Shown piece after piece: positions 14,023-40,978 of a stretch of 64,000 nucleotides of DNA (position 1 is the first letter of the stretch; every line of letters begins with the position of its first letter). Below the pieces are notes generated by a model. The model ran no database searches. It saw only the letters and a program-made list of their open reading frames with translations, and was not told where the DNA came from. This stretch comes from Nitrososphaerota archaeon (GTDB taxonomy: Archaea > Thermoproteota > Nitrososphaeria > Nitrososphaerales > UBA57): assembly GCA_002713205.1 (NCBI GenBank), contig PAVW01000006.1:4779-68778 (forward strand). The letters are read 5' to 3'. The position numbers and the translations under genes are program-made.

Positions 14023-16791
14023 CTAGAATGGTTGATTATTGTTTCGGCGTCGCATAAGTAAGATTACAATAATAAAAACAAATATACCAGTTCCTATCAT
14101 TGTTGGCGTATTAAAAAATTGTAATGAACTAGGACAATCATCTTGTTGTGATGCAAATGGTAATAAAAGATTATTCGATTCAGGACAGTTCTGAACGTTT
14201 GTAGAAATAGAATCCGATATACTTCCATCTATATTCAAGTTAAAGAATTCTGAAATAGCATATGTATTTCCATATGAATCATCATAACTAATTACTAGTT
14301 CAATTGGAATTTGTCCATTTGGTGATGATTCACTAACTTGGAATTTAAGGCTAAAAGGAACAAGCGAATCTGGATCAACTTCACCAATATATTGAGTGCT
14401 TTCAGAATTAGTCAGAATAGAATTAGACGGAGCAATGGATAGAGTCAAAAATTGCGCTTCTTTATCACCTATATTCAATATACTACCGATAAAACTGGCA
14501 TTGCCTCCAGAAGGAATAATAGTAGGGGAAAAAGTCACTGAACTAGATTTAATATCAATATTTCCTCGAATGGTAAATCCCATCTGCCGAATTTCATCAT
14601 GATGAATGCCATTAATATCTAAATAAGATATAGAGATTTGTATTGGAAAAGAGCTATCAGTGAAACTAAGGGAAGTAAAAATATCAGGACTTATTGTAAC
14701 GGATTCCAATGAATCTAATCTATCGAATTTCCAAGTAGAACTTCCAGAATTTAAAAATATAGGAAAAGAATTTTGAACAGAAATAAATTGTAAATCTAGT
14801 ACCAGATTTGATATAGGTTCATCGTCAATATTCTGTATTATAATGTCAGATTTAGTCACACGGCCCGATTGTAATATATTATCAGGTACTTCGATAGAAA
14901 TTGGTGAAGACCAGCATGCTGGAAGTAACCAAACCATATTAGGAGCAGAACAATCTTCCTTAACTACAATTCCAATTTCTTGAATTTCTTGATATATTTC
15001 CCCATTGGCAGTACGATATGAAACAGTTATTGACACAAAGTATAATCCTTGTTGAGCAGTCGGAGATACATACGTTTTAAAAGTTAATGATTTTAGATCA
15101 CCTGATTCCAACAAGCCTATTTTTCTCTCAGTATCACCTTCAGCAGTACTTAAGAAGCCTTGAGAATTAGAATAGGATAATAAAACTTTGAGTGAGTAAA
15201 CAGGTGCGCTTCCTATATTATCTATATCAATTACTAAATCGTTTAAAGTTCCAATGAAGAAGACATTTTCGTCTAGATTAATATCAATATCACTAACTCC
15301 TTCTATATTTATAGAAAATAAAACACTATCAGAACGCAAAATAGAATCCTTATCTAGATATGAAAGATCAATACTAATGGTATAAGTTCCTAAAGTTGCA
15401 TCATCATTTATGTTAATTAAAAATTCTGCAGATGTGGTAGAACCACTTGATACGACATTACCGAAAGAGCTAGAGATAAAATTATTATTAGTAGTTGTAA
15501 ATGGATTAGTTAGCACAAGGGTACCTTGAATACCACTAATAGGACCTGTATCTCGATTTTGGATTACAATTGTAAGTCCAACACCCTTATCCCCAGGTTC
15601 AACATTTATTTTGTTGTTATCAGAACCCCAAAATGCATCTACAAGTACAATTCCTCGCCGACTCATTTCATCAATTCGAATATTAATTGTACGAGTTTCT
15701 AAGATGTCATTACCAAATGAATCTGTATAAACCATATTACAGGTCAATTGGAAAGTTTGTCCAGCAGTAGAAATTGGAGCAAATATTGATGGCATAAGTG
15801 TAACTGAGCTATTAGGTGAAAGTGAGCTAAATTTCCATTTATTATCTGAGCTTATTAGACTTAATGGTGGAGGAATAGTAATAGAAAAATCCACAGAGCC
15901 TGTACGTCTTGTTCCTTCATTAGTAATAATAAGTTCTAGATCGTTAGATTGGTTTGGAGAAAATGTCTGCATATTTGAAGTAATTTTCAAAAAACTACGT
16001 CCAGTTATTTGAACTTTAATTTCTCTATCTATAGATGTACCAATTATAGAATCAATAGTTTTATAATTAACAATCAATGGTAATTTTAGAAGTTCTAATT
16101 TAGCAGTATCATCAATATCAACTAAAAAGTTAAAAGATAAACTGTTTCCAGACTTTAACGTAGTAGAAGAAATATCAAACAATCGATTGCCGCCAGTACG
16201 ATTTGTCAAATGTCGAGGAAGAGTAATAGTAATAGAAACATCAGTAATATCAAAATAACCACCATGTCTAATAATAACATTCAAATTAGAACCTAGATCT
16301 CCAGGGGCTACCTCAATTGGAACTTCTTGCGTACCCCAATCGGAAAAGAGAATTTCAAATTGTGTAACGAATATCTTCAATTCATAATTACCAGTACCTG
16401 AGAATTTTCTTCCGGATATTTTTAAGTAATAATGACCCGATTCTAATACCGTATAATCAATTGATTCATCTTCACCTGTACGTTTTTTTGACGAAGCTAA
16501 TTCAATTTCATTATTATCTGCACTGTCTGGATCAAACAAAAATAGATTTAAATCGCTACCAGAAGGAACATCAAGCAATATAGAAATGTCTTGACCTGCA
16601 AGAACATGAATTTTATAATAAACTTCAACACTATACCCTTCCGCCCATGTTCCATCGATTTGACCAGAGGAAATTAATTCTGCATTGGAGATGGAGCTTT
16701 CTGCATTAACAGGAGGAATAATTAAGAACAATTGACTAAGAAGAAGAATCAAAACAAGGAATATCACTAATAGGGATTTAATATTATACAT
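14023..16791 (-). CDS. Large surface protein with signal peptide, PPC-like domain, repeated beta-sandwich domains and a C-terminal TM anchor
   Basis: 922 aa. The N-terminal hydrophobic leader ends ...PPVNAE. The pre-peptidase-C-terminal-like segment includes DLNLFLFDPD and GHYYLKISG...GNYELKI. The long Ser/Thr/Asn-rich beta-type region resembles COG1361/CARDB-type archaeal envelope proteins. C-terminal helix GTGIFVFIIVILLM is followed by RRRNNN. It lies 9 nt upstream of the ABC ATPase. Confidence 0.6.
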   Translation of the reverse strand: MYNIKSLLVIFLVLILLLSQLFLIIPPVNAESSISNAELISSGQIDGTWAEGYSVEVYYKIHVLAGQDISILLDVPSGSDLNLFLFDPDSADNNEIELASSKKRTGEDESIDYTVLESGHYYLKISGRKFSGTGNYELKIFVTQFEILFSDWGTQEVPIEVAPGDLGSNLNVIIRHGGYFDITDVSITITLPRHLTNRTGGNRLFDISSTTLKSGNSLSFNFLVDIDDTAKLELLKLPLIVNYKTIDSIIGTSIDREIKVQITGRSFLKITSNMQTFSPNQSNDLELIITNEGTRRTGSVDFSITIPPPLSLISSDNKWKFSSLSPNSSVTLMPSIFAPISTAGQTFQLTCNMVYTDSFGNDILETRTINIRIDEMSRRGIVLVDAFWGSDNNKINVEPGDKGVGLTIVIQNRDTGPISGIQGTLVLTNPFTTTNNNFISSSFGNVVSSGSTTSAEFLININDDATLGTYTISIDLSYLDKDSILRSDSVLFSINIEGVSDIDINLDENVFFIGTLNDLVIDIDNIGSAPVYSLKVLLSYSNSQGFLSTAEGDTERKIGLLESGDLKSLTFKTYVSPTAQQGLYFVSITVSYRTANGEIYQEIQEIGIVVKEDCSAPNMVWLLPACWSSPISIEVPDNILQSGRVTKSDIIIQNIDDEPISNLVLDLQFISVQNSFPIFLNSGSSTWKFDRLDSLESVTISPDIFTSLSFTDSSFPIQISISYLDINGIHHDEIRQMGFTIRGNIDIKSSSVTFSPTIIPSGGNASFIGSILNIGDKEAQFLTLSIAPSNSILTNSESTQYIGEVDPDSLVPFSLKFQVSESSPNGQIPIELVISYDDSYGNTYAISEFFNLNIDGSISDSISTNVQNCPESNNLLLPFASQQDDCPSSLQFFNTPTMIGTGIFVFIIVILLMRRRNNNQPF

Positions 16792-27547: not shown

Positions 27548-30500
27548 ATGAAGGAGAATCTAGTATTATTTTGTTTAATTTGTTTAATTTTATCGTTACA
27601 GACTGTAATTATAGTTCCGACGAGTCAAGGTGAAAGTGACGAAATTTCTATTGACGCAATTCCGTCAGAATATATTGTAATTACAAAAGGTAGCAGTGGA
27701 ACAATCACACTAGATATAACAAAAGTAAATAGCACGTTAGGAAGTGGAAATCCTATAAGAACGGTGTCAATAAGTGTAGAGAATTTGCCTACTGGAAGTA
27801 GCGCAAGTGTTTCTAGTCCTTTTAGCACTTCGGTATTTGTAGGTGTGACAAGTTACAATTTAGACGTTACAATTACAGCACCTCTTAGCGTAGAAAGCGG
27901 GAGTTACAATGTAGTATTCAGAGCTACATTAGATAAAGATTCTGAAGATGTAAATACGAATGATGTAACAAAAACAGTAACTGTATATATTTCAGATTTT
28001 GAACTTTCCACATCATCATCTACAGTTACACTTATGCCTGGTGAAAGTGAAGAGATAGTATTAACAGCAAAATCATTGAATAATTTTTCCGGGTCGGTGG
28101 ATGTAATTTTACCAACAGTAACGGGTGCAGTAATTGAAAACTTAGGAAGTCTAAACGTTCCTGAAGGAACTCAAGATACTACAAATATTAGATTTACAAT
28201 AAACAGCAATGCAGTAGAAAATGGTAATGGCGTTCCTGTAGATATAAAAACTAAAGTAGGAAATTTGGAACGTATAATCACAATTACTTTAAAAATTATT
28301 CCAAATACCCTTCAGATAGAATTAACAGCAGATCCTAATCCTGTAGTTATTTTTCAAGAAAGTGTGATTACAGCGACTATCAAAGATGGTAACGGAATTG
28401 TGATTTCAGGAGCAAATGTAACGCTATCATTTTCAGGTGGAAGTGGTAGTTTTTCAAATTCATTATCTTCTATTGCAGGTATTACTGATTCGAATGGAAA
28501 ATTTTCCGATCAGTTCGAGGTGATTAAAGGAGTAGTAATAATCAAAGCAGAAACCTCAAAAACCAACTATGGTACGAGTAGTACGACCATAACGCTAGGT
28601 ACAAAAGGACATTTTGAACTTTCAGTGGAACCAGATAGTAACATAATAAATGCAGGGGATCAAAAAACTTTGACTGTGTCTGTACGATCAATTGATGGCT
28701 TTAATTCGCCCGTTAAACTGTCATATGCAGGAGGAGGAATAGGGATTTCAGTAGAGTTCACTTCCAGTGATATAATAACGCCACCACCAAACGAGACTTC
28801 TGAAGCTAGTGTTTTAATTACACTTTCAAATTCTGTAGATCCAAAACTTTACAGTGTGCAATTAATTGGGGTAGATACAATAACAGGCGAGTTGTCAAAG
28901 ACTGCAACATTTTCTATTGATGTGCCGGAAGTCGATATAGCAATAACTATCACGCCAAGTAAACAAACTATTAATCAAGGAGATATAGCATTATTCAACA
29001 TTACATTGTTATCACTTGGTGGTTTTCAAAGTGATGGTGTTACTTTAAAAACAGATCTACCTGACGATATGGAGGTGACGTTTATACCTAATCCAGTGAC
29101 GTTAGAACCTGGTGGAAATAGAAAACTTCAGTTGCGTATAGAAACAAATGACAACACCAATCCAATTGATGAGTATCCCATAATTATTGCTGCAACATCT
29201 CTAAATTCTGAAACTACAATAACTGCGTACTTGACGGTTAAAGAGTTATTCGATGTATTTTTTGATTCAACACATAGGATAGGGGGAGAAGAATTGGCTG
29301 TTGTTAAAATTTTTGTAGATGGTTTTCCAATACAAGAAGAAGATCTACCAGCTCATAGGAAATATGTCGAAGGAACAAATATCACAATAAAAATCCTCAA
29401 CAATATAGTTGATGAGGAAAAGGGAGTACGATACAAATTTAATTCTTGGAACGATGGAAGTGTATCAGTGGAAAGAAAAATCACCGTGGATAGATCTTCG
29501 ACATTTAGAGCGGAATTTGATAAAGAATTTTTACTTGAACTTAAAACTACACCAATTGGTGTTACAAAACCGTTAGGTGATGGATGGTATAAAGAATATA
29601 CTGAAGTTTCAATAAACACAATGCCAATAGTTGATATAACGGATACATCAAGATACAAATTTCAAAACTGGGACGGAGCAATATTAGCCAAAAATGAAAG
29701 GACGGATATAGTAATGGATGCGCCAAAACAAATTTTTGCGAATTATATATTGCAATATAGAATAAGTAGAACTGTAGAACCTGAATTTCTGAAGAATTTA
29801 ATTAATTTGTCAGAAAAGGAATGGGTTGACAGAGGAGCGCAAATCGATTTAGTAGCAGACGAAAAAGTCAACGAATATGGTTTTAAACAATGGATTATAG
29901 AAAGCAGTCTAGGAAGAGAGTCTATAATTAACAATCCTTGGAAAATAAGTGTCAATGAACCAATTAATATAATTTTAGAATATCAGCTTCTTCCTGATGT
30001 ACAAATAGTATCAGTAAATATGGCAAATAACGGATTTGAAGGAGAATTTTCACATATGTGGTTGAATTTAGCGAATAATCATCTTAGAGGAGGAGACATA
30101 ATAATAAAAGTAGAAACGAGCATAGATGGACTTGTAATTACACCATTAAAAATTGAAATGTTTATCGATGCAAATGAAGAAAAGACAATATCATTTATGA
30201 TTAATTATACAAAACAAGGTAGCGGAACAATAAAATTTACACTGGAAAAGACTGCACAGATGGAATCGAAAGAGTTTTATAAAGAATTTAAAATATTTTC
30301 ACAGAATGAAAAGAGAATTGTGATAAATATGGGTAAATCTCTTAGTGCTAAGCATCTTCCTGAGTTTAATAGTTTAATGGAGCCAAATGATAGAGTAATA
30401 ATTTGCGCGACAGAAATAATTGAACAAACAATGCTACAAGAAAGTGCGACTGAATTAGAAAAAGCAAGATTAATTTTAAAATTTTTGTCATCGAGAATTA

Positions 30501-31978
30501 TAAGTGTACCTGAAATACAACCACGTAGTGTATCAGAACTAATACGTGAATTTGGAGTTATGGGTTGTGCAAATAGTAACAATATTATAGAAGGAGACTC
30601 AAGAACAGCACAAATACTATATGGAGGTTTATTGAGATCAATTGAAATTGAAGTAAGACCGGTTATAGGCATCTTAGGTACGTCGACAAATATGATTTCG
30701 CCAAATGTTGAATTACATGCATGGCTTGAAGTAAAATTAGATAACCAGTGGATAATTATCGATCCATCAACTGGGATAATGTCTATTGATTTAATACTGC
30801 CGGAGAATGTACAAGGAGAATTTAATCAACGTGAGATATTCAATGCAATACCAGAGCAAGGTGGAATATTATCAGCTATGATGTATAAATGCATTACGAT
30901 ATGTAATATAGATATAACTGAATCATACAGTGGAAAAGTGCCAATTTTTAATCCAGGGTCAATGATTTTTGTAGAAGGAGATGTAAATGTGAATATAATA
31001 GACTCAAATCGTAATTTCATCACTAATGGAACTTTAGTTACATATTCATGGTCAGAGAATAATCAAGAAGAGAGTTTATCAAGATTTGTAAAGTTAATTA
31101 TGTTGTCAGAAGGTGTAGATCTGCAATATATAACAATAAACATAGAAGGGCAATTGGGAAAACAATTTCAACTAAATATATTGAATTCGATTAATTTTGA
31201 ATATAAAGTAACTTCTATTTCACCGACTTTATTTTCAAAGTCGGAAGTAGAATATAAAATTCAGATAGAAGGAAATAAATTATCAATATATGAATTTGTT
31301 ACGTTGGAATTCGAAGAAAATGAAATTGATATTATATCAACTTCATCAATAATTAGAGAAAGTCAACAAAGAAGATTAACGGCAATAGAAATTACAGTAG
31401 CTGGTAATAAAGGCAATACAGGAACAGTGATAATAAGCATACCTAGAGAAATATTTTCAGAACTGAATTCAGAATCAACAGATATAATTGTAATAATAGA
31501 TGAACAAAGAGTACCGGTAGAAATAATAGATGATGAATTAATACCAATAATAAAAATAAATTACATATTTAATATGGAAAAAGAAATTCAAGAAAAAAGA
31601 ATCATAGTTTTCTTAAAAACATATAAAGTTTCATTCGAATTGAGAGATCCACTAAATAGAATAATTAATAATGCCGAAATAAAAATGATCGGGGAAACTG
31701 AAAATAGAACGCAAATAAGTAACCAACCAATATTTGAACAACTTCATCCTGGGAATTACAAATTTACAATTAATTATAGAGGCGAATTAGAAGAGATTTC
31801 AAAACGAATTAATGATGATGATATAAACGTTAGAATTAATTTATTTAGATCAGATTCTATGGTTAGTTTCATAACAGCAGGTATTTTTATAATAATTGCA
31901 GTAATATCCTTCGGTATACAAATTGCTCTTTCAAAAGTAATACCTGAAGATAAAAAGAAATCAGCTTCGGGTTCTTAA
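27548..31978 (+). CDS. Giant surface protein with transglutaminase-like core, signal peptide and C-terminal TM anchor
   Basis: 1476 aa. The N-terminal leader is LVLFCLICLILSLQTVIIVPTSQG. The N-terminal half is a long Ser/Thr-rich Ig-like or CARDB-like repeat region. Transglutaminase-like Cys-His-Asp pattern: MGC(1007)ANS...LLRSIEIEVRPVIG...H(1057)AWLEVKLDNQWIIID(1072)PSTG, codons 30566-68, 30716-18 and 30761-63. C-terminal helix is ITAGIFIIIAVISFGIQIAL. Confidence 0.7.
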   Translation: MKENLVLFCLICLILSLQTVIIVPTSQGESDEISIDAIPSEYIVITKGSSGTITLDITKVNSTLGSGNPIRTVSISVENLPTGSSASVSSPFSTSVFVGVTSYNLDVTITAPLSVESGSYNVVFRATLDKDSEDVNTNDVTKTVTVYISDFELSTSSSTVTLMPGESEEIVLTAKSLNNFSGSVDVILPTVTGAVIENLGSLNVPEGTQDTTNIRFTINSNAVENGNGVPVDIKTKVGNLERIITITLKIIPNTLQIELTADPNPVVIFQESVITATIKDGNGIVISGANVTLSFSGGSGSFSNSLSSIAGITDSNGKFSDQFEVIKGVVIIKAETSKTNYGTSSTTITLGTKGHFELSVEPDSNIINAGDQKTLTVSVRSIDGFNSPVKLSYAGGGIGISVEFTSSDIITPPPNETSEASVLITLSNSVDPKLYSVQLIGVDTITGELSKTATFSIDVPEVDIAITITPSKQTINQGDIALFNITLLSLGGFQSDGVTLKTDLPDDMEVTFIPNPVTLEPGGNRKLQLRIETNDNTNPIDEYPIIIAATSLNSETTITAYLTVKELFDVFFDSTHRIGGEELAVVKIFVDGFPIQEEDLPAHRKYVEGTNITIKILNNIVDEEKGVRYKFNSWNDGSVSVERKITVDRSSTFRAEFDKEFLLELKTTPIGVTKPLGDGWYKEYTEVSINTMPIVDITDTSRYKFQNWDGAILAKNERTDIVMDAPKQIFANYILQYRISRTVEPEFLKNLINLSEKEWVDRGAQIDLVADEKVNEYGFKQWIIESSLGRESIINNPWKISVNEPINIILEYQLLPDVQIVSVNMANNGFEGEFSHMWLNLANNHLRGGDIIIKVETSIDGLVITPLKIEMFIDANEEKTISFMINYTKQGSGTIKFTLEKTAQMESKEFYKEFKIFSQNEKRIVINMGKSLSAKHLPEFNSLMEPNDRVIICATEIIEQTMLQESATELEKARLILKFLSSRIISVPEIQPRSVSELIREFGVMGCANSNNIIEGDSRTAQILYGGLLRSIEIEVRPVIGILGTSTNMISPNVELHAWLEVKLDNQWIIIDPSTGIMSIDLILPENVQGEFNQREIFNAIPEQGGILSAMMYKCITICNIDITESYSGKVPIFNPGSMIFVEGDVNVNIIDSNRNFITNGTLVTYSWSENNQEESLSRFVKLIMLSEGVDLQYITINIEGQLGKQFQLNILNSINFEYKVTSISPTLFSKSEVEYKIQIEGNKLSIYEFVTLEFEENEIDIISTSSIIRESQQRRLTAIEITVAGNKGNTGTVIISIPREIFSELNSESTDIIVIIDEQRVPVEIIDDELIPIIKINYIFNMEKEIQEKRIIVFLKTYKVSFELRDPLNRIINNAEIKMIGETENRTQISNQPIFEQLHPGNYKFTINYRGELEEISKRINDDDINVRINLFRSDSMVSFITAGIFIIIAVISFGIQIALSKVIPEDKKKSASGS

Positions 31979-33298
31979 CAATTTGTTTAAATTTTTATCA
32001 TAAATTACGAAGGTATTTTCTAGTTTTTTAAGGTCATCTTCAGTAATATTGAATTCATCCCATAACTCCATATCATGAATATACGACTTAAAACTGTCAT
32101 AGCCATTTTGCAATGGCTTAATTATATTTTCTAATTTTGCGCCACCTAATAATAATAAAACATCCATTCTATCAGAAGTCTCACGTACAGGAACAATGTG
32201 TAACAATGATTCTTTGAGTGCAGGAAATCGTTTTCTATTCCAAGAATTATAATCATCTTCTATACGTTTAGAAGATATATTTTGGAGAACAGTTTCAGGA
32301 ACTCTTATTATAGCAATACTTAGAATAATTGATTCAAATTCAAATGGCGAAAGTGGGAAATATGCAGCGTCGTCAAGAATATTTTTTATATTATCATATA
32401 TTTCATAACTTCTCCCATAGACATAAACCGGAGAAAATGCAAGTACTTTTAGAGATTTTGCAATTCGACTTAAGTTATTAATAGTAGTTCCATGTTCAGA
32501 TATCAAATTAAGCATTCGAGGAACTAAAACATCTGAATTTAATGTTTTACCAGAACGATCTATTCCTATCATTTTCTCAAGTGCATTACCTTGAAGAACC
32601 ACCAATATATCTCCAGAAGCCTTTTGACTTTTAATTATTCGAGAGAGGCCACAATATGCATTAAATTGAATTTGATCAGTATCAGTAGTCGATGGTAACA
32701 CAGAAAAAATAATTCTAGATGTTCCTTGGTTAATTGATTGGATTTTACGAAGGACATAAGGCGTTATAGCAGAAACTAATGGTTCACCCAGTAAACCAGT
32801 CAATATAACAGTCTGGTCTTGGATATTCTCATTAATACCGACTCGTCGGATGTGATCATCTAATTGTTTATTTTCAGACAAATTAGATCCTATACCGCTC
32901 CAGAGATTAATTTCATTACTTATATTCAAATCAAATTTAAATATTCCATTATTTGATTCAACATTATTATTTTTTATATCTGAAAACGATTCTAAATCCG
33001 ATTTAGAAGAACCCAATACCAAATAATTAGAAGATGATTGGTAGGTATGTGTACTGAGATTAAAAATAGTTTGAGAACCGTATAAACCAATACCAAGATT
33101 AATAATTTTTTTACTTTTCGTGAGGTTTTGATTTGTAAACATATCAATAATAAATTTTAATTCTTGTTGAAAATTAATAAGTGGTGAATCACAAGTTGCG
33201 CAATCATCTAGTCCGCGGACATTCTTATGTCCATCAGGACATAAAATAAAGGAATCAGAATTTGATTTACGATTATTAGGACGAATTCTAATATTCAT
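31961..33298 (-). CDS. Degenerate FtsZ/tubulin-fold protein with N-terminal Zn-ribbon-like element (predicted pseudo-GTPase)
   Basis: The ORF track gives 31961..33382 (473 aa). I prefer Met29 (33298) as the start, which leaves an 82-nt divergent intergenic region. It carries CPDGH-x8-CATC, then FtsZ-like segments at FtsZ-like spacing (about 100 and 104 aa apart). T1 position is INLGIGLYGSQ versus GVGGGGxN. T4 position is ILTGLLGEPLVSA versus GMGGGTGTG. T7 position is TTINNLSRI versus INVDFADV. All three nucleotide or catalytic motifs are degenerate. Confidence 0.55.
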   Translation of the reverse strand: MNIRIRPNNRKSNSDSFILCPDGHKNVRGLDDCATCDSPLINFQQELKFIIDMFTNQNLTKSKKIINLGIGLYGSQTIFNLSTHTYQSSSNYLVLGSSKSDLESFSDIKNNNVESNNGIFKFDLNISNEINLWSGIGSNLSENKQLDDHIRRVGINENIQDQTVILTGLLGEPLVSAITPYVLRKIQSINQGTSRIIFSVLPSTTDTDQIQFNAYCGLSRIIKSQKASGDILVVLQGNALEKMIGIDRSGKTLNSDVLVPRMLNLISEHGTTINNLSRIAKSLKVLAFSPVYVYGRSYEIYDNIKNILDDAAYFPLSPFEFESIILSIAIIRVPETVLQNISSKRIEDDYNSWNRKRFPALKESLLHIVPVRETSDRMDVLLLLGGAKLENIIKPLQNGYDSFKSYIHDMELWDEFNITEDDLKKLENTFVIYDKNLNKLLRTRS

Positions 33299-33380: not shown

Positions 33381-34367
33381 ATGAAAAGTAATCAAACAAT
33401 CAAATATGATTCAATCATGGTTGATGAGAACGGAGTAAAAACAAAGGGCAGAATACATGTATCGAATGTAAGTTTATCCTTTGAAAGAAAAATTGGATTA
33501 ATATCAAAAAAATTTGAACCGATGTTAAAAATTCCAATCGAATCAATAACGTCTTTTAATAAAAAAACATATTTTGAAATAAGTCTTAATTATGTAATTT
33601 CAGATCAAAAAGTAATAATAAATATTATTTTTAATACTCCCGCAGAAGTAATAGAAATAATAGAAAAAATTAATTCTTTGAAAAGTAATCTGGAAATCAA
33701 AGAGGAAAGAAACCAACAATTAGAACAAGATAATAAGATAAATAAAATAGATTATTCAACATATATTTATGATACTAGTTTCAAAATTTTATCAATAATA
33801 TCAATAATATTTGAACTTTTAAAAGAAAATACAAATAGTAATTGGGATAATGTAGATAATGAATATAAAAAATTTAATGAATTAATTGCATCACTTGAAA
33901 ATAATAATATAAATCTAGTACAAGATTCTACAAAAATAAAATCTGCACTTCAAACTAGAGATACTGAGAAAATATTTAATTCAATGAAAGCAAGTATTAG
34001 AACACTGGGAAACGTCTTAGAATCAGAAATTCCATACAAAGAATGGAATGAATATGATAATTCAATAAAACCAAGCTGGAACAATATTCAAATATTTTAT
34101 TTATTAACACTATCATTGAATCAAGCTATATATTTTTCTAAATTAAATATTGATTTTGATAAAGATAAAACATTAAACAATATATTCAAATATATTCCAA
34201 TTGTAAATTCAAATTTTTCAAATATAGCATCGTATGATAAAGATGAAATATCGAATAAGATGATAAAGGATGATCCTGAAATATTAAAAGAAATAATCAC
34301 ACAAATGTCAATGAATTTACAAAAGAATGTGAAAGAATTATTAAAGCAAGCAAGCTTATTATCCTAA
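33381..34367 (+). CDS. Hypothetical protein with a beta-rich N-terminal domain (PH/GRAM-like?) and a helical C-terminal region
   Basis: 328 aa with no TM segment. The first ~100 aa alternate short hydrophobic strands ending in an amphipathic helix (PAEVIEIIEKINSLKS). The remainder is Asn/Lys/Glu-rich and helical. The fold call is a guess. Confidence 0.45.
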   Translation: MKSNQTIKYDSIMVDENGVKTKGRIHVSNVSLSFERKIGLISKKFEPMLKIPIESITSFNKKTYFEISLNYVISDQKVIINIIFNTPAEVIEIIEKINSLKSNLEIKEERNQQLEQDNKINKIDYSTYIYDTSFKILSIISIIFELLKENTNSNWDNVDNEYKKFNELIASLENNNINLVQDSTKIKSALQTRDTEKIFNSMKASIRTLGNVLESEIPYKEWNEYDNSIKPSWNNIQIFYLLTLSLNQAIYFSKLNIDFDKDKTLNNIFKYIPIVNSNFSNIASYDKDEISNKMIKDDPEILKEIITQMSMNLQKNVKELLKQASLLS

Positions 34368-36829
34368 TTTTTAAGAATTTTGTGTAGAATACTAGTTTTT
34401 GTGTCAAAAGATATCTTCTTTTTACCAATAGCAAATAATTGAAGATATTGTATTGCATATTTTGATTTTACAGGTAATTGCGTTGGAAGAACTTTTCCAT
34501 CTATTTTAATCAATGAAGAAATCAATGGCTCAATATTGATATAATTTAAGATAAATTCATTCATTATCAGATATTTTTTAAGTGTGTTAGTTTCATTTTC
34601 AATAATTTTTATTCCATATTCAATATTAGAGAGTCTATCAGAAACATCATTAAGTACCTGATCATCTAATTTTCCTAAAGATGCTTTAATATCTGAGATT
34701 AACTGTGTATCCTTACCCCAATGAAAATCAGCCGGAATTTTAGAATCATTTCGTTTTTCAAATTCATGTAATAATTGTAATAGTTCTTCAATAACTGTTC
34801 GAGTTCCTGATTCAAGGAAAGCTAGCGAATCCATAACATCAGGTAAATAAAGAATCCCGCGAAAAGTTTCAAGATTTTCAAAATCCTTAGAAATTCTTTG
34901 AGTAATAAGACCAGTTTCAGTTGTTTTCGGGTCTTTACCTAATGATTCATTTAATGGTAAAACATTAGATTCGTACATCTTAACTGATCGTTTAATCAAC
35001 TTTTTTAAATTGACAATAGTTTTTTGCATTATTTTCATGTATCTTTGATTTAATGAATTAATTGTTACTAACAATGAATCCAGAGCTTGTTCTCCCTGAC
35101 CTTGTTGAATGAAATTTTCGCTAATTGAAATAGATGTTGCTTCAAGTGTAGGATCGAAATTTCTTTGTACTACTTTAACAAGTTTATCAGAAATATTAAT
35201 AGTATTTTGTGATAATTCTAGAAGGAAATTATTTAAATCGTCCTGATGACTAAGAATTATTGTAAAGGCAATTTCTGCATCAGGATCTAAATGTGTTAAC
35301 TCAATATCAGGTAAATTAACTATTCCCAACTTATTTAAACTATTGAGCAGAGTCTTACTTTTATCTAATTGTCTATTATGATATTCAATTAATTTCTTAT
35401 GCAAATTAATTTCATTTTCAGATTGAATAGCTGAAAGTTCATATATTATTTTAACTTTAGAATTTAAAATTTTATAAGATAAAGTATCAACACCATCAAG
35501 TGTAATAAGCAATTCCTCTTTGAATTTGTTAGCTGCAGTAAGTTCAAAATTGATATCAATTCCAGGACAAGCATCTTGAATTTTTTTTATTTTTTCAAAG
35601 AAAGCATCTACTAATAAAGAATGATCTTTACAAACTTTTTTAATTGTTTCATTCAATTGTGCAGATATATATCGTTTGGATAAACTTATTGAACTAACGG
35701 AAAGAATTACGCCAAACCCTCCAGCAGATAAAATAGTTTTTAATGAATTTGAAAAATTAAAACTGGTATAATAATCAAAGGGAATTTGCATGGTCTGTAA
35801 TGGAATAATAAAGAAAATACAGCCTAAAATAATAGTAAATATGAACGAGAAATCCGGAATTTGATTAAGATCAACACCACGTAACTTTAACCAAGGCCAT
35901 ATTCTATCCATAATACCAACAACAGAAAATGTGACAAGTAGTAAAAGTGGAATAAATAAAATAACCAACCGATCAATTAATAAAAATAAATAAGGATGAA
36001 ATACGTCATTTTGTACAGTTAAAATTCCTGAAAATAATTCACGAATGACGGGTAAATCAAATGAAGATAACCTAGGATTCTCATTAAAAATCAATTGATT
36101 GAAAAGAGGTAGTGATTCTGAACTCATAATGTGAAAAATTTCTTGTGGATTTAAATTTTCATTAATATTTGCATTATATGCAAAAGAAAGAGCGCCAAAA
36201 GGAATAAGTATCATAAGAAACATAAAACACATTCCTAAATTGCGTAAGAATTCATGGTCTTTTCGAATTAAAACAATCGACAACATTAATGGAATAGAAA
36301 TGAAATAATAAGGAGTTAAAAATAATGCTCCTGATATTAGACCAATAATAGGTGATAACAAATTATTTTTATTAGTAAGAGATCTAACTGTGAATAATCC
36401 TACAAAAAACAAATTAATTAATAACCACCAGAAAGGGACACTGGTTTGATATAGATAAGCTGGAATGAAAGTAAAAATCGATAGTGAAAATCCTATAAGA
36501 GGAGATCTAAAACCAATAACTGACGTTATAATAGCTATAAGAAATACTATTGGAACCGGATATAAGGGAATTACATACAACAATGTTGCAGTAAGAATAA
36601 ACAAGAGAATAGAAAGAAATACGTTCTGTAGGTTTTTACGGTATTGAATTTCTCGTTCTATTGCATTATCAATAGAAGGCGAGGGCCTTATACCAACTTT
36701 GTCAATAACTGAACTGTTAATGAGAGATGGCAAGGTAGTTTCTACATGTTTTTTATTATCAATACTAAGAATCTGTATCTTCAATCTTTTCTGTAGTAGT
36801 AAGTTGATGATCAGGTGATATGTGAACAC
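34364..36829 (-). CDS. Polytopic membrane protein (about 10-11 TM) with ~430-aa helical/coiled-coil cytoplasmic C-terminal domain
   Basis: 821 aa. Residues ~70-390 form successive hydrophobic helices; residues ~390-821 are heptad-like and helical. The annotated start overlaps the upstream gene by 65 nt. A TTG about 20 nt inside the upstream stop region is an alternative start. Either way the two genes appear translationally coupled. Confidence 0.6.
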   Translation of the reverse strand: MFTYHLIINLLLQKRLKIQILSIDNKKHVETTLPSLINSSVIDKVGIRPSPSIDNAIEREIQYRKNLQNVFLSILLFILTATLLYVIPLYPVPIVFLIAIITSVIGFRSPLIGFSLSIFTFIPAYLYQTSVPFWWLLINLFFVGLFTVRSLTNKNNLLSPIIGLISGALFLTPYYFISIPLMLSIVLIRKDHEFLRNLGMCFMFLMILIPFGALSFAYNANINENLNPQEIFHIMSSESLPLFNQLIFNENPRLSSFDLPVIRELFSGILTVQNDVFHPYLFLLIDRLVILFIPLLLLVTFSVVGIMDRIWPWLKLRGVDLNQIPDFSFIFTIILGCIFFIIPLQTMQIPFDYYTSFNFSNSLKTILSAGGFGVILSVSSISLSKRYISAQLNETIKKVCKDHSLLVDAFFEKIKKIQDACPGIDINFELTAANKFKEELLITLDGVDTLSYKILNSKVKIIYELSAIQSENEINLHKKLIEYHNRQLDKSKTLLNSLNKLGIVNLPDIELTHLDPDAEIAFTIILSHQDDLNNFLLELSQNTINISDKLVKVVQRNFDPTLEATSISISENFIQQGQGEQALDSLLVTINSLNQRYMKIMQKTIVNLKKLIKRSVKMYESNVLPLNESLGKDPKTTETGLITQRISKDFENLETFRGILYLPDVMDSLAFLESGTRTVIEELLQLLHEFEKRNDSKIPADFHWGKDTQLISDIKASLGKLDDQVLNDVSDRLSNIEYGIKIIENETNTLKKYLIMNEFILNYINIEPLISSLIKIDGKVLPTQLPVKSKYAIQYLQLFAIGKKKISFDTKTSILHKILKN

Positions 36830-39470
36830 CTTGTTCTAATAGAAATGAATGAGAAAGGAGTGTTTCACCTTTTGTTGTTTGGTTGTAAAGTATTCCCATT
36901 TCCTTAAAATTGTCTAAATCCGAAGGAGATGCTTTTGCAGCAATAATGAGAAATCTCATTGTCCAAGGATCATCAGAATCAACTTCTCTAATATAGATGC
37001 TTTTAGATGCATCTTTACTTACATAGCCCGCAAGCATGGTTTTTGCTTCAGAATCTAAATCAGAATCCCAAATACCACGCGGACTAACTACAGTAAACCA
37101 CAGGTAATCAGTGCGATATTTTGAAGTCAACCCGAGAGTAGCAGGAATTCGAAAGATTCCCAAAGCACTTGCTAAATATTCTTTCAAATGTTTGCGATCA
37201 ATAATCTCATTGAGCATATTTTCCTGAGTTAAAGAAGCTTCATCTTCAAGTAAAATACGTTGCATAATTTTTAGTTGTTCACCTTCAGTTAGTTCTGCGA
37301 CACGATCATAATAACCTCGATCTCTCATAGTTTCATTCATTTTTTCATAGTAAGAATTTTCAAAAGTAGTAGCTTCAGTTAACATTTTTCTATAATTAGA
37401 AGCTACTTCAAATTTTCTTTCAATATTAGTATAAGCAGAGAGTTTATTTTCAAGGATCTGTCTTTCACCACTTACAGCATTAATTTGTTGATCAATAAGA
37501 TGCAATTCATGTTCTAAATCAGAAGATTTACTTTGCATAATTTTTTTGCGCGGTCCTAGAAACCCAAATCGAATCTTTTTTGCCTGTCCACCAACACGAT
37601 CTTTTTCCTGGGTTCTACTTTTCTGTTTTATTAATAATGATTCTTCATGTGTACGAAGAGTATCTAATCTTTCAGATATAATACGTTTCATTACTTGACA
37701 ATCACTTAATCGCGCATCAAGAGTTTTAACTTCTAATGAAATAGGGGAAAGAAGAGAAGATAATAAAGCAAAATTAATAACAAGTTCTGGATTAGATATT
37801 CTGGAAACAGATTCTTTCATACGATCATGTAATTCACTCTGATCGAGTTTATCAATAGTTTTAGATAATTTATCGGACAAATTATGAATTTGTAAGTAAA
37901 GTTTCAGACCGTCAAGATAATAATTTATTAATCCAATTAAATTAATTGTATCATTAATAATTTGTAATTGTCGAGGAGTTAAACTTTGAGCACTAGGGAG
38001 AGTTGATTGAAGATCTTCAGTGAGTGTTTTTACTTTTTCTTGTAATTTTTGATAATTTTGAGAGAGATTAAGGCTCAATGAGACCATTTCTTCAGAAAGA
38101 GATCGTATTCTAGATTCAACTGTGCCGTCTACAGCATTTAATCCTATGGACAAAACAGATTTCGATAAATCCGTGATTAGACTTCTAACTGAATCTTCGA
38201 CCCCTCGAATATGCATAACAAGATCAGCGTCCATAGATGTCCCCTCACCAAGAAAACTCTGTACGGTCGATTCAAACCTTGATTCGTCATAAGTGTTTTT
38301 TTCAATAAGAAGTCGTCGATATATAGATTTTAATTCAAGAAAATCTGAGTCGAAGATTGTTTTCAAACCAAAAGTTTCTTTTGTTCCATTATAAATATCT
38401 AATTTTTCCCGTCGTAATTCTCGAAGTCTATCGAGTTTATCTAGATAGATTTTTGTGAGATCAATAAATTCAGCAACAGGATAAGAAACTTTTAGAGTTG
38501 ACATAACATTGACCCATTTCCCATCTAAATCAACATTAGAACCAATATTACTAAATAAATCGGCTAAATCAAAGTTTAATGATTTCATTAGAATATCAAC
38601 AATAGCTTCATCAACTAATTTTCTAGCATCTAGTACACTACCAGCTCTGCTATAAGCAGGACCTAAGGACATCATAAGAAATGCAGTAAATGGATTTTGA
38701 TATGTATCCCCATATTTACTAGTAATTTTATGATTTAATGATCTATCAATTGCAAATTCATGCTCTAACAATGCAGCATAGCTAGCAGCGCCTTTTGCAG
38801 GAGGATCATCACCACTACAAGGCAATATAGTTAAACCAATTATAGGAATTCCACTACCTATTTTTTTACGTAGATGTCGTGTAAAATCTAGTGCAGTGCC
38901 ACTTCCAGAACCACCGCCAAGTCCATAAATAATAAATATAATTGGTTGTACTGTAGAAGTAAAAACATGTTCCTTAAATTTATCCATATAACCATCAACA
39001 AGTTTTAGATGGTGATAATTTAAACCGTATATTGCTTTAGAAAGTGCACGTTTTCTTCCCACACCACCAGCTAAAGGAGGTATTTCCATTGAAGAGGAAA
39101 GCCAAGGAATATAGTTATCTGGTACTTTTACACCTTCTCTTTGTAAAAATTCAGGATAATTTTGGATAAAATCAAACATAGATTCAGGAGTTGGGAATTT
39201 CATTGTCTTGCTAACCAATTTAATTTTATCAGCAGGAATATTATTAATCTTCAAATCGTCACCAAGTCTCTTATATGCCATATCAAGGCTACGAATGTCG
39301 TGATCAGCAACGTCCAATGATAAGAGAGATACCTTAACCCCTTCAATTTTTAGGAGGTCGATAAGATCAGATTTATTTTTAATAAATGCCTCAATTACAT
39401 TAGCACCAGTTCCTCCTAATCCAATTATCTGTATAGAATTCGTATAACTGCGAGCTTTGTTTTCTGACAA
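36765..39470 (-). CDS. FtsZ/tubulin-superfamily GTPase fused to a long coiled coil and a C-terminal globular domain
   Basis: 901 aa. T1 is IIGLGGTGANV (39399-39422). T3-like segment is LAGGVGRKRALSKA. The T4 tubulin signature is GLGGGSGSG (38898-38924). The T7-like segment is LNFDLADLFSNI (38559-38576), about 110 aa after T4 as in FtsZ. Residues ~330-720 are heptad-rich. Residues ~720-901 look globular. Confidence 0.75.
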   Translation of the reverse strand: MSENKARSYTNSIQIIGLGGTGANVIEAFIKNKSDLIDLLKIEGVKVSLLSLDVADHDIRSLDMAYKRLGDDLKINNIPADKIKLVSKTMKFPTPESMFDFIQNYPEFLQREGVKVPDNYIPWLSSSMEIPPLAGGVGRKRALSKAIYGLNYHHLKLVDGYMDKFKEHVFTSTVQPIIFIIYGLGGGSGSGTALDFTRHLRKKIGSGIPIIGLTILPCSGDDPPAKGAASYAALLEHEFAIDRSLNHKITSKYGDTYQNPFTAFLMMSLGPAYSRAGSVLDARKLVDEAIVDILMKSLNFDLADLFSNIGSNVDLDGKWVNVMSTLKVSYPVAEFIDLTKIYLDKLDRLRELRREKLDIYNGTKETFGLKTIFDSDFLELKSIYRRLLIEKNTYDESRFESTVQSFLGEGTSMDADLVMHIRGVEDSVRSLITDLSKSVLSIGLNAVDGTVESRIRSLSEEMVSLSLNLSQNYQKLQEKVKTLTEDLQSTLPSAQSLTPRQLQIINDTINLIGLINYYLDGLKLYLQIHNLSDKLSKTIDKLDQSELHDRMKESVSRISNPELVINFALLSSLLSPISLEVKTLDARLSDCQVMKRIISERLDTLRTHEESLLIKQKSRTQEKDRVGGQAKKIRFGFLGPRKKIMQSKSSDLEHELHLIDQQINAVSGERQILENKLSAYTNIERKFEVASNYRKMLTEATTFENSYYEKMNETMRDRGYYDRVAELTEGEQLKIMQRILLEDEASLTQENMLNEIIDRKHLKEYLASALGIFRIPATLGLTSKYRTDYLWFTVVSPRGIWDSDLDSEAKTMLAGYVSKDASKSIYIREVDSDDPWTMRFLIIAAKASPSDLDNFKEMGILYNQTTKGETLLSHSFLLEQGVHISPDHQLTTTEKIEDTDS

Positions 39471-40483: not shown

Positions 40484-40978
40484 CTATTCAATTAACGAAA
40501 ACGCTAATCTAACAGCATCATAAGCGTCATTTGCAACTAAATATCTATGTTCTGCAAATCCAATTGGAGTATTTACGAACCAATCGACAACACCGCCAGT
40601 ATTCTGTATTATAATAACAGGTTTATTTAGATTCAATGCAAGAGAAAGTTCAGAGAGCGTACCCCAACTTCCAGATATACCAATAACTGCATCCGCTACA
40701 CTCACCACAAAAAAATTTCTAATTTTACCAATTGATGTAGGTATACATATATCAATGAATTGATTTGCTGCATTAATATTGTCATCTGGTAATATACCCA
40801 CTGTAATTCCATTGTATTTTTTAGCGCCGCGAGATGCACATTCCATAACACCACCAAGACCACCACAAACAAGTATACCATTCTTTTTCGCAATCTCGAT
40901 TCCAACTTTTTCTGCAATATCACTAATGTGAGTTGAAGAAACTTCATTACTTCCACAAACAGCAATTTTTTTTCTCAA
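40484..40978 (-). CDS. TIGR00725/LOG-family Rossmann-fold protein
   Basis: 164 aa with GGLGGVMECASRGA and SGSWGTLSELS (a PGGxGTxxE-like motif). Confidence 0.7.
   Translation of the reverse strand: MRKKIAVCGSNEVSSTHISDIAEKVGIEIAKKNGILVCGGLGGVMECASRGAKKYNGITVGILPDDNINAANQFIDICIPTSIGKIRNFFVVSVADAVIGISGSWGTLSELSLALNLNKPVIIIQNTGGVVDWFVNTPIGFAEHRYLVANDAYDAVRLAFSLIE

Follow-up and report, generated by a model that had tools for sequence, protein, structure and literature searches.

A divergent tubulin-superfamily protein with a long helical arm, and its conserved partner genes, in Nitrososphaeria, Bathyarchaeia, and Dehalococcoidia

What role does a 901-aa protein carrying the motifs of an FtsZ/tubulin GTPase play in an archaeon, and is it the role of a division FtsZ? 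The question is raised by a gene, here called B, in a 64,000-nt stretch of contig PAVW01000006.1 (positions 4,779 to 68,778 of the forward strand) from a Nitrososphaerota archaeon of the order Nitrososphaerales (UBA57; assembly GCA_002713205.1). We refer to this entire stretch, which is about 31% G+C, as the window and number positions from its first letter. An original prediction, made from the letters of the window alone, held that the N-terminal part of B is a GTPase of the FtsZ/tubulin superfamily with the motifs needed for polymerization-dependent catalysis, that a very long heptad-rich region and a distinct C-terminal domain follow it, and that the protein is not a division FtsZ. Profile searches and structure predictions confirm that B is a genuine but very divergent relative of FtsZ and tubulin. 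By sequence it is a member of a small, peripheral subfamily within the FtsZl1/Tubulin_2 assemblage, and it is encoded with two membrane proteins (A and C) and a second tubulin-superfamily protein (E). We put the chance at about even that B forms a membrane-coupled, assembly-activated GTPase filament that acts with A, C, and E in organization of the cell envelope and not in division.

Gene B comprises 901 codons and a stop codon on the minus strand, from a TTG start at 39470 to a stop at 36765; a plus-strand reading of the same interval was rejected because the frame is full of stops. The four motif strings of the original prediction (T1, T3-like, T4, and T7-like) are all present in the translation, as is FRIPATLGLTSKYRTDYLWFTVVSPRGIW of the C-terminal domain. 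We scored motif conservation in an alignment of 33 homologues, down to 34% identity. Invariant residues are G17, G19, and G22 of T1; G135, G136, R139, and R141 of the T3-like loop and the start of H3; G183, G185-187, G189, and G191 of T4; P217, C218, and D221 of T5; N246; A282 and D287 of H7; F300 and D301 of T7; and Y330, just beyond the GTPase domain. D304, L305, and P331 are at least 90% conserved. The T7 motif, originally read as "NxDxxD", is kept in a proper alignment, where it directly follows the predicted H7 and retains D301 and D304, but the asparagine is variable. Between T4 and T7 there are 114 residues (G187 to D301), near the value of about 100 residues in E. coli FtsZ, so the expected FtsZ-like spacing holds roughly. 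This spacing, the invariance across homologues, and an above-threshold Pfam match together indicate that the motif strings did not arise by chance. The sequence and both structural models described below show the core helix H7 and, after it, a T7 loop with acidic residues. An xFDxxD string after an H7-like segment also occurs in some Tubulin_2 proteins of 750-1150 aa (SSLNFDSNDQ in a 1145-aa protein, SHLSFDSND in a 747-aa protein), so this T7-type feature may be more widespread in the family.

The Pfam match is to Tubulin_2 (PF13809), which aligns with residues 15-219 over profile positions 2-208 of 356 (40.1 bits, cut-off 27; E=3.4e-10). All close homologues of B carry the same precomputed assignment, and the match of PF00091 to the T4 region, at 28.7 bits, falls under its cut-off of 33. 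Sequence searches of the PDB align about 40 residues around T4 only. The best match is CetZ1 (4b46; E=0.036 for the single sequence and 3.2e-4 with a profile, residues 175-216), and the segment also aligns with FtsZ. Because these searches are limited to so short a segment, we examined the fold by structure prediction with AlphaFold2 (AF2). Residues 1-345, modeled from a 32-sequence alignment, gave a predicted local distance difference test (pLDDT) score of 83.4 and a predicted template modeling (pTM) score of 0.84; for the full-length protein, with 33 sequences, the scores were 89.7 and 0.78. The model of the GTPase domain has family-specific insertions between S2 and S3 and between S3 and H3, and in both models the T3-like loop precedes a helix (137/141-154). 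When the N-domain model was searched against the PDB with Foldseek, the 50 best matches were all FtsZ, CetZ, TubZ, or tubulin, led by CetZ2 (4b45; E=1.6e-7) and including E. coli FtsZ (6ll6; 3.8e-7), TubZ (2xkb_D; 1.5e-5), and gamma-tubulin (3cb2; 1.8e-5). The full-length model recovered the same families among its 50 best matches (TubZ 2xkb, E=7e-6), and only its contiguous N-terminal part was matched. The superfamily assignment of residues 1 to about 310 is thus borne out by Pfam, by the AF2 models, and by Foldseek, and a non-tubulin Rossmann GTPase, the assignment that would have spoken against it, does not appear among the 50 best matches of either model.

CetZ proteins (4b45, 4b46, 3zid) are the best structural matches (template modeling score about 0.5, target-normalized) as well as the best sequence matches around T4, and like B they are archaeal tubulin-superfamily proteins not devoted to division. 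The sequence similarity is nevertheless confined to those ~40 residues, and the structural match is at the superfamily level. CetZ proteins are compact, two-domain proteins of about 350-400 aa and are not known to have a helical arm or co-encoded membrane partners. On sequence and predicted structure, B is not a member of the CetZ family.

Beyond H8, the original prediction described some 400 aa of heptad-rich coiled coil. In the full-length model this region is an arm of 11 helices, each of 13-56 residues (the longest being 577-632 and 636-687), with pLDDT mostly above 85. A heptad scan placed 114 of 383 arm residues (415-489 and 641-679) above the 99th percentile of shuffled controls. The coiled-coil-like stretches are real, and their extent was overstated; the model indicates a folded multi-helix arm with coiled-coil-like parts, not a continuous coiled coil of ~400 aa. 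The ~180-aa C-terminal domain that follows is present and conserved. It is predicted to contain strands 790-796, 825-831, and 837-847 and helices 759-774 and 803-816, and W791, P797, W801, Y816, and W836 are invariant among the 33 homologues. The extreme C-terminal tail is variable in the alignment and is not a conserved peptide.

The C-terminal domain had been thought distinct from the GTPase, yet it is probably not an independent add-on. In the model of residues 1-345, segment 310-331 forms no strand and has pLDDT of 41-44. When the full-length protein is modeled, residues 320-329 form a strand, according to DSSP, with pLDDT of 86-95. The only strands beyond residue 345 lie in the C-terminal domain, and strand 320-329 is thus predicted to pair with that domain. 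The order of elements in B is an S7-like strand (320-329), the arm, helix 759-774, strand 790-796, helix 803-816, and strands 825-831 and 837-847. The C-terminal domain of FtsZ has the order S7-H9-S8-H10-S9-S10. Given this similar order, and a strand that is ordered only when the C-terminal domain is included, the helical arm looks as if it were inserted within the C-terminal half of a tubulin-like body rather than appended to a truncated FtsZ.

The three-part architecture is itself not new: by sequence and model, it is that of FtsZl1. This family was named in 2010 by Makarova and Koonin, who described an FtsZ-like domain at the N-terminus, a long helical/coiled-coil middle, and a C-terminal globular domain (PMC2875224), and it was equated with Pfam Tubulin_2 by Santana-Molina et al. 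(PMC9871819). Its authors ranked FtsZl1 with the FtsZ/tubulin superfamily's most diverged branches, and predicted a role in membrane remodeling from its membrane-protein neighborhoods; in their study T6-H7-T7 was not identified and nothing aligned past H5, and filament formation was left open because neither the T7 loop nor the C-terminal domain was recognizable (PMC2875224). B shares the layout (residues 1-310, GTPase with H7/T7/H8; 332-714, helical; 715-895, globular), passes the Tubulin_2 gathering score, and is encoded beside membrane proteins. It differs in that its subfamily has a clear, conserved H7 and T7-type motif of the kind not found in 2010, and in that its C-terminal domain is predicted to be alpha/beta, versus "mostly alpha-helical" in the earlier description. 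Its lineages are also all absent from the 2010 member list. The gene neighborhoods differ as well. Typical neighbors of FtsZl1 genes are vWA, OmpA-like, and Ser/Thr kinase genes and, in archaeal operons, a divergent membrane-associated P-loop GTPase (PMC2875224). We found no vWA, OmpA-like, Ser/Thr kinase, or P-loop GTPase (Walker A/NKxD pair) domain in the products of the genes around B (A, C, D, E, and F), and a second tubulin-like gene and orphan membrane proteins are present instead. New here are the ~900-aa subfamily and its range of lineages, the retained H7-T7 unit, the probable insertion topology, and the conserved gene cluster.

The extent of the subfamily was gauged by searching 1.84 billion representative proteins with a profile of the N-domain, which found 357 proteins at E<=1e-3, 100 at <=1e-10, and 38 at <=1e-30. 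About 15 representatives from the B clade are full-length (~860-916 aa), and proteins of 500-590 aa form the tier after them. Many proteins of ~740-1150 aa match at E values of about 1e-8 to 1e-14, and the six that were scanned are strong Tubulin_2 proteins (60-92 bits). Overall, 340 homologues of B were identified, some of which are named "tubulin-like domain-containing protein" at NCBI; conservation over the full length is seen at about 900 aa. Full-length homologues are confined to Nitrososphaeria/Nitrosopumilales, Bathyarchaeia, Methanomethylicota, and Dehalococcoidia/Chloroflexota, and a relative was found in 205 species-level genomes. The 80 loci retrieved are all from metagenome-derived or uncultured-organism assemblies. 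The nearest public relatives of the window are metagenome-assembled genomes of uncultured marine Nitrosopumilales/Thaumarchaeota, among them "Thaumarchaeota archaeon ASW2_bin45", whose B N-domain is 87% identical.

Two further observations concern relatives of B. A second tier of proteins of 470-590 aa (P0194, P0197-P0200, P0203, P0204, P0206, P0212, P0215, and P0221) matches the N-domain profile at E=1e-27 to 1e-52, with neither FDxxD nor the long arm, and looks from sequence like a separate, shorter sister group. Some Bathyarchaeia homologues (P0091, P0095, and L005:10001-12865) are ~950 aa long and end in an extra zinc-ribbon-like extension (CxxC...CxxC).

Potentially addressing the question of function, genes A, C, and E accompany B with great regularity. 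The genes are closely spaced in the window, and gene A ends 8 nt before the start of B. From hydropathy, its product has an N-terminal signal or anchor, an extracytoplasmic domain of ~210 aa, a transmembrane (TM) helix at 240-258, and a cytoplasmic helical tail of ~50 aa; it is 33% identical to a Dehalococcoidia orthologue (E=1e-59). Protein C is predicted to have ~7 TM helices in residues 83-383, followed by a cytoplasmic helical domain of ~430 aa. Orthologues of A through E all occur on one Dehalococcoidia contig, on one strand and in the order A-B-C-D-E. We assessed co-occurrence over 85 B loci, counting A where there was enough upstream flank and C and E where at least 6 kb flanked B on both sides. 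In 70 of 76 loci the gene immediately upstream of B is A (Nitrososphaeria 18/19, Chloroflexota 24/26, Bathyarchaeia/other 28/31). C is present in 45 of 47 (11/11, 15/15, and 19/21 in the same groups), and E in 46 of 47 (11/11, 15/15, and 20/21). The association persists despite differing gene order and strand; in Bathyarchaeia, for example, E is located between B and C and is encoded on the opposite strand. A literature search found no description of the A-E gene cluster.

Protein E was found to be a second member of the superfamily. It comprises an N-terminal zinc ribbon (CPxxH...CxxC) and a tubulin/FtsZ-superfamily domain. The longest open reading frame of E runs to 33382, and the conserved start is probably M29 of that frame, giving 445 aa. 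Residues C48, P49, H52, C61, and C64 of the ribbon are invariant in nine orthologues from Nitrososphaeria and Dehalococcoidia. E is 28% identical (E=1e-61) to a Dehalococcoidia protein that carries PF00091, and a profile of 16 orthologues matches CetZ1 (3.6e-11), Asgard AtubB2 (3.7e-11), TubZ (1.5e-10), BtubB (1.8e-9), and gamma-tubulin (about 2e-8) in the PDB. On this sequence evidence E is a tubulin-superfamily protein. Its T4 signature is intact in Dehalococcoidia and some Nitrososphaeria (LGGGTGSG or LGGGMGSG) and degenerate in the clade of the window (LLGEPLVSA) and in Bathyarchaeia (e.g., WDGIGSG, GEGVGSA). The decay to LLGEPLVSA explains why Pfam misses the E protein of the window. The T7 equivalent of this clade (TINNLSRI) is without the acidic residues that other lineages keep (e.g., VDLAEM, DFIEDF). 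With both features lost from E, B is the only subunit with a complete catalytic set in this organism, and E looks like a non-catalytic partner. E proteins form a natural series from active to degenerate tubulin-like partners. Bathyarchaeial E proteins are without the zinc ribbon; that either B or E bears a ribbon is a hint of a single complex in which the two work together.

The pair recalls the heterodimeric tubulins (alpha/beta, BtubA/B, and Asgard AtubA/B), in which, as here, two paralogues are co-encoded; the catalytic degeneration of E in some lineages and the profile matches to AtubB2, BtubB, and gamma-tubulin are further points of likeness. B and E are nevertheless far from each other and from true tubulins: a profile alignment of the two with hhalign covers the T4-T5 segment only (78% probability). 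E carries the zinc ribbon at its N-terminus, Tubulin_C was not detected, and a dimer of B and E is conjectural.

These features suggest how the system might work. GTP would be bound by the N-terminal domain of B via loops T1-T6, and its hydrolysis would require the T7 loop (D301 and D304) of a second B subunit to reach into the pocket. As in FtsZ and tubulin, activity would thereby be coupled to head-to-tail association into protofilaments or, at a minimum, dimers. This picture of polymerization draws on the confident fold, the invariant residues of T1, the T3-like loop, T4, and T5, and the FDxxD motif after H7, and it agrees with the filament-dependent GTP hydrolysis originally proposed for B, which the conserved motifs make plausible. 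After H8, the second half of a tubulin-like body would open with strand 320-329. The chain would then leave as an arm of ~385 residues and return as the C-terminal alpha/beta domain, completing the sheet. We predict that the arm projects sideways from the filament and engages cytoplasmic parts of C and A. The conserved co-encoding of B with A and C, and the TM segments of these two proteins, point to a membrane-coupled filament, which would probably be tied to the membrane through the single-pass, mostly extracytoplasmic A and the polytopic C; these contacts are inferred. E probably works alongside B, and in this organism would be a non-catalytic subunit, cap, nucleator, or adaptor. The housekeeping surroundings of the cluster and the membrane-remodeling role predicted for FtsZl1 (PMC2875224) are in keeping with this picture. 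Overall, the proposed role is that of a membrane-bound cytoskeletal or remodeling machine of the cell envelope and not a division ring.

Several observations weigh against this reading. N299 of B, which corresponds to the conserved asparagine of the FtsZ T7 motif, varies among homologues (N, S, R, K, or D). The large arm could block canonical lateral or longitudinal contacts. [quoted passage not shown] A profile of the C-terminal domain alone (28 sequences) finds no credible PDB match and no Pfam family, and its alignment to protein E with hhalign has a probability of 0.3%, giving no sequence support for C-terminal homology. Coevolution, measured as mutual information with average product correction over 123 non-redundant sequences (effective number 72), is dominated by phylogeny; pairs between strand 320-329 and the C-terminal domain numbered 4 versus 3 expected, and W319-F840 ranked fourth in this phylogeny-dominated signal. 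One Bathyarchaeia locus (L005) has B without A, C, or E within 10 kb, adjoining a Cdc6/Orc1-family gene. Finally, a literature search found no experimental work on any FtsZl1 protein, so polymerization is putative for the whole family.

The alternative that fares best is that B acts without forming a filament, as a GTPase switch activated by dimerization, either with itself or with E, its arms serving as a stalk that bends or fuses membrane in the manner of dynamin. The conserved motifs would fit a single longitudinal interface, the arm is a folded multi-helix bundle and not a simple coiled coil, and there are membrane proteins among the partners. B nearly always has one paralogue, E, beside it, and E, whose GTP signature is lost in several lineages, is reminiscent of a partner that does not exchange nucleotide or does not catalyze. 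B and E are, however, only distantly related, and with neither the T4 signature nor the T7 acids the E protein of this organism would be incapable of canonical GTP binding and of activating B. Dynamin-like and P-loop domains were not found and, to our knowledge, all characterized tubulin-superfamily members with an intact T7 loop polymerize. We judge a dimer switch unlikely, though it deserves to be taken seriously.

Returning to a filament of B at the membrane, the involvement of its partners could extend across the cell envelope. At least some TACK archaea and some Dehalococcoidia have protein S-layers and no peptidoglycan wall. It is possible, although we hold it as doubtful, that the cluster encodes an undescribed trans-envelope machine in which two tubulin-superfamily proteins (a catalytic B with its FtsZ-like body divided by the arm of 385 residues and a zinc-ribbon E that has repeatedly lost GTP binding) are joined through C and A to the cell surface, and that TACK archaea and Dehalococcoidia have exchanged this machine. 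If so, it would be a distinct type of prokaryotic cytoskeleton, serving membrane/S-layer organization or cell shape.

Whatever the mechanism, the conserved H7-T7-H8 unit and the suggested retention of the second half of the tubulin body make polymerization-coupled GTPase activity a concrete, testable prediction. B together with E, its tubulin-like companion, and the orphan membrane proteins A and C constitute a compact candidate system. The cluster, which occurs in Nitrososphaeria, Bathyarchaeia, and Dehalococcoidia, three abundant and largely uncultured lineages, could open the study of cytoskeleton-membrane coupling in them. The features of the locus are compiled in Table 1.

Table 1. Genes of the cluster and elements of protein B. 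Positions are those of the window; residues are numbered in the respective protein.
Feature	Position	Strand	Basis
Gene B, FtsZl1/Tubulin_2-type protein, 901 aa, TTG start	36765..39470	-	Open reading frame list, translation, Pfam, homologues
B, GTPase domain, residues 9-276, strands S1-S6 and helices H1-H6	38643..39446	-	AF2 N-domain model, Foldseek
B, T1 loop IIGLGGTGANV, residues 15-25, between S1 and H1	39396..39428	-	Alignment, model
B, T3-like loop and start of H3, AGGVGRKRALSKA, residues 134-146	39033..39071	-	Alignment, models
B, T4 tubulin signature GLGGGSGSG, residues 183-191	38898..38924	-	Alignment, PDB sequence searches
B, core helix H7, residues 279-297	38580..38636	-	Both AF2 models
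B, T7-like loop and H8, LNFDLADLFSNI, residues 298-309 (loop 298-301, helix 302-309)	38544..38579	-	Alignment, both AF2 models
B, S7-like strand, residues 320-329	38484..38513	-	DSSP strand in full-length model only
B, all-helical arm, residues 332-714, 11 helices	37329..38477	-	Full-length AF2 model
B, C-terminal alpha/beta domain, residues 715-895	36786..37328	-	AF2 model, alignment
Gene A, 309 aa	39479..40408	-	Hydropathy scan, Dehalococcoidia orthologue
Gene C, up to 821 aa	34364..36829	-	Hydropathy scan, Dehalococcoidia orthologue (E=1e-53)
Gene D, 328 aa, soluble, fast-evolving	33381..34367	+	Dehalococcoidia orthologue (E=1e-7)
Gene E, 445 aa from conserved start	31961..33298	-	Orthologue with PF00091, profile versus PDB
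Gene F, 1476 aa, secreted, C-terminally anchored	27548..31978	+	Pfam, TM segments

The remaining genes of the cluster are less constant or less readily interpreted. The longest open reading frame of C starts with GTG inside B and shares 65 nt (36765-36829) with the 3' end of that gene. In related loci, similarity to C begins anywhere from ~55 nt inside B to at least ~35 nt past its end. Given this variable start and the overlap, the true start of C is probably downstream of the one listed. C was also considered as a counterpart of the membrane-associated GTPase of archaeal FtsZl1 operons; this was ruled out, as it has no Walker A or NKxD motif. Searches with A, C, and D, including profile searches of Pfam and the PDB, found no Pfam, PDB, or PADLOC family. 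The best sub-significant profile matches were to a Wzt-type beta-sandwich for A (E=0.15) and to designed helical bundles for C.

Gene D is on the strand opposite to B in the window and on the same strand in Dehalococcoidia, where its orthologue match is weak but significant. It was detected in 9 of 11 Nitrososphaeria and 10 of 15 Chloroflexota loci. The Pfam family bPH_3 is touched by one D orthologue only (E=0.041), so the N-terminus of D is possibly PH-like. Gene F converges on gene E with an 18-nt overlap. Its product has TM segments at 5-23 and 1432-1450, a Transglut_core domain (29.9 bits, cut-off 23), and an Ig-like Big_1 match below cut-off. F is syntenic with the cluster in 9 of 11 Nitrososphaeria loci and in no Chloroflexota or Bathyarchaeia locus, and may be a lineage-specific extracellular component.

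The genomic setting bears on whether the cluster could be an anti-phage or conflict system, with the tubulin-like NTPase as sensor or effector scaffold. Conflict systems, too, include gene sets with vWA, kinase, and GTPase members. Genes of these kinds often adjoin bacterial FtsZl1 genes (PMC2875224), and the family is patchily distributed across domains. A gene for a SLOG/LOG-like Rossmann protein (40484-40978, minus strand) lies 75 nt upstream of A, and its product matches PsyrA of PADLOC weakly (E=1.3e-7). The latter gene is, however, of the housekeeping type TIGR00725 (131.9 bits, cut-off 106.9; Pfam LDcluster4, E=1e-38), does not adjoin the cluster in those other loci for which a gene list was made, and is probably unrelated to it. 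No match to PADLOC-DB 2.0 was found for any of A, B, C, D, E, and F, and effector domains such as nuclease, protease, or TIR were not found either. The neighborhood is one of housekeeping genes: carbamoyl-phosphate synthase, a Na+/H+ antiporter, an acetolactate-synthase-type enzyme, 2-oxoacid:ferredoxin oxidoreductase, aconitase, flavin reductase, an Lhr-type helicase, and malic enzyme. We saw no mobile-element or defense signature around the cluster in the window, and synteny, including flanking genes, is stable within Nitrososphaeria. A defense function thus appears very improbable.

It is harder still to believe that B is the cell-division FtsZ of its host, or a replacement for it. B and division FtsZ belong to the same superfamily and share the GTPase fold, GGGxGxG, T5, H7, and an xxDxxD T7 loop at similar spacing, so that both GTP-binding and T7 motifs are conserved. 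B differs in its large T1-T4 insertions and in a 385-residue arm that interrupts the C-terminal half of a protein of 901 aa. It scores 20.1 bits against the NCBIfam ftsZ equivalog model (TIGR00065; cut-off 295.2), and no FtsZ_C domain was detected with Pfam; in this respect, the original view that B is not a division FtsZ was correct. Nitrososphaeria encode Cdv (ESCRT-III-type) division proteins (PMC9723716), and a division role for FtsZl1 was argued against on the grounds that canonical FtsZ is usually also encoded (PMC2875224).

A TubZ- or PhuZ-like motor segregating the DNA of a plasmid, virus, or chromosome has, we think, only the slightest chance of being right: TubZ is among the best structural matches for both models of B and the zinc ribbon of E could in principle bind nucleic acid, but the setting is chromosomal and housekeeping in character, its position is conserved across related genomes, the cluster contains no replication, partition, or phage genes, and the conserved partners are membrane or secreted proteins with no TubR-like DNA-binding adaptor among them.

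Elsewhere in the window, the minus strand at 14023-16791 codes for a protein of 922 aa that has PPC (pre-peptidase C-terminal) and NPCBM-associated domains. In this small genome it is probably a further large surface protein.

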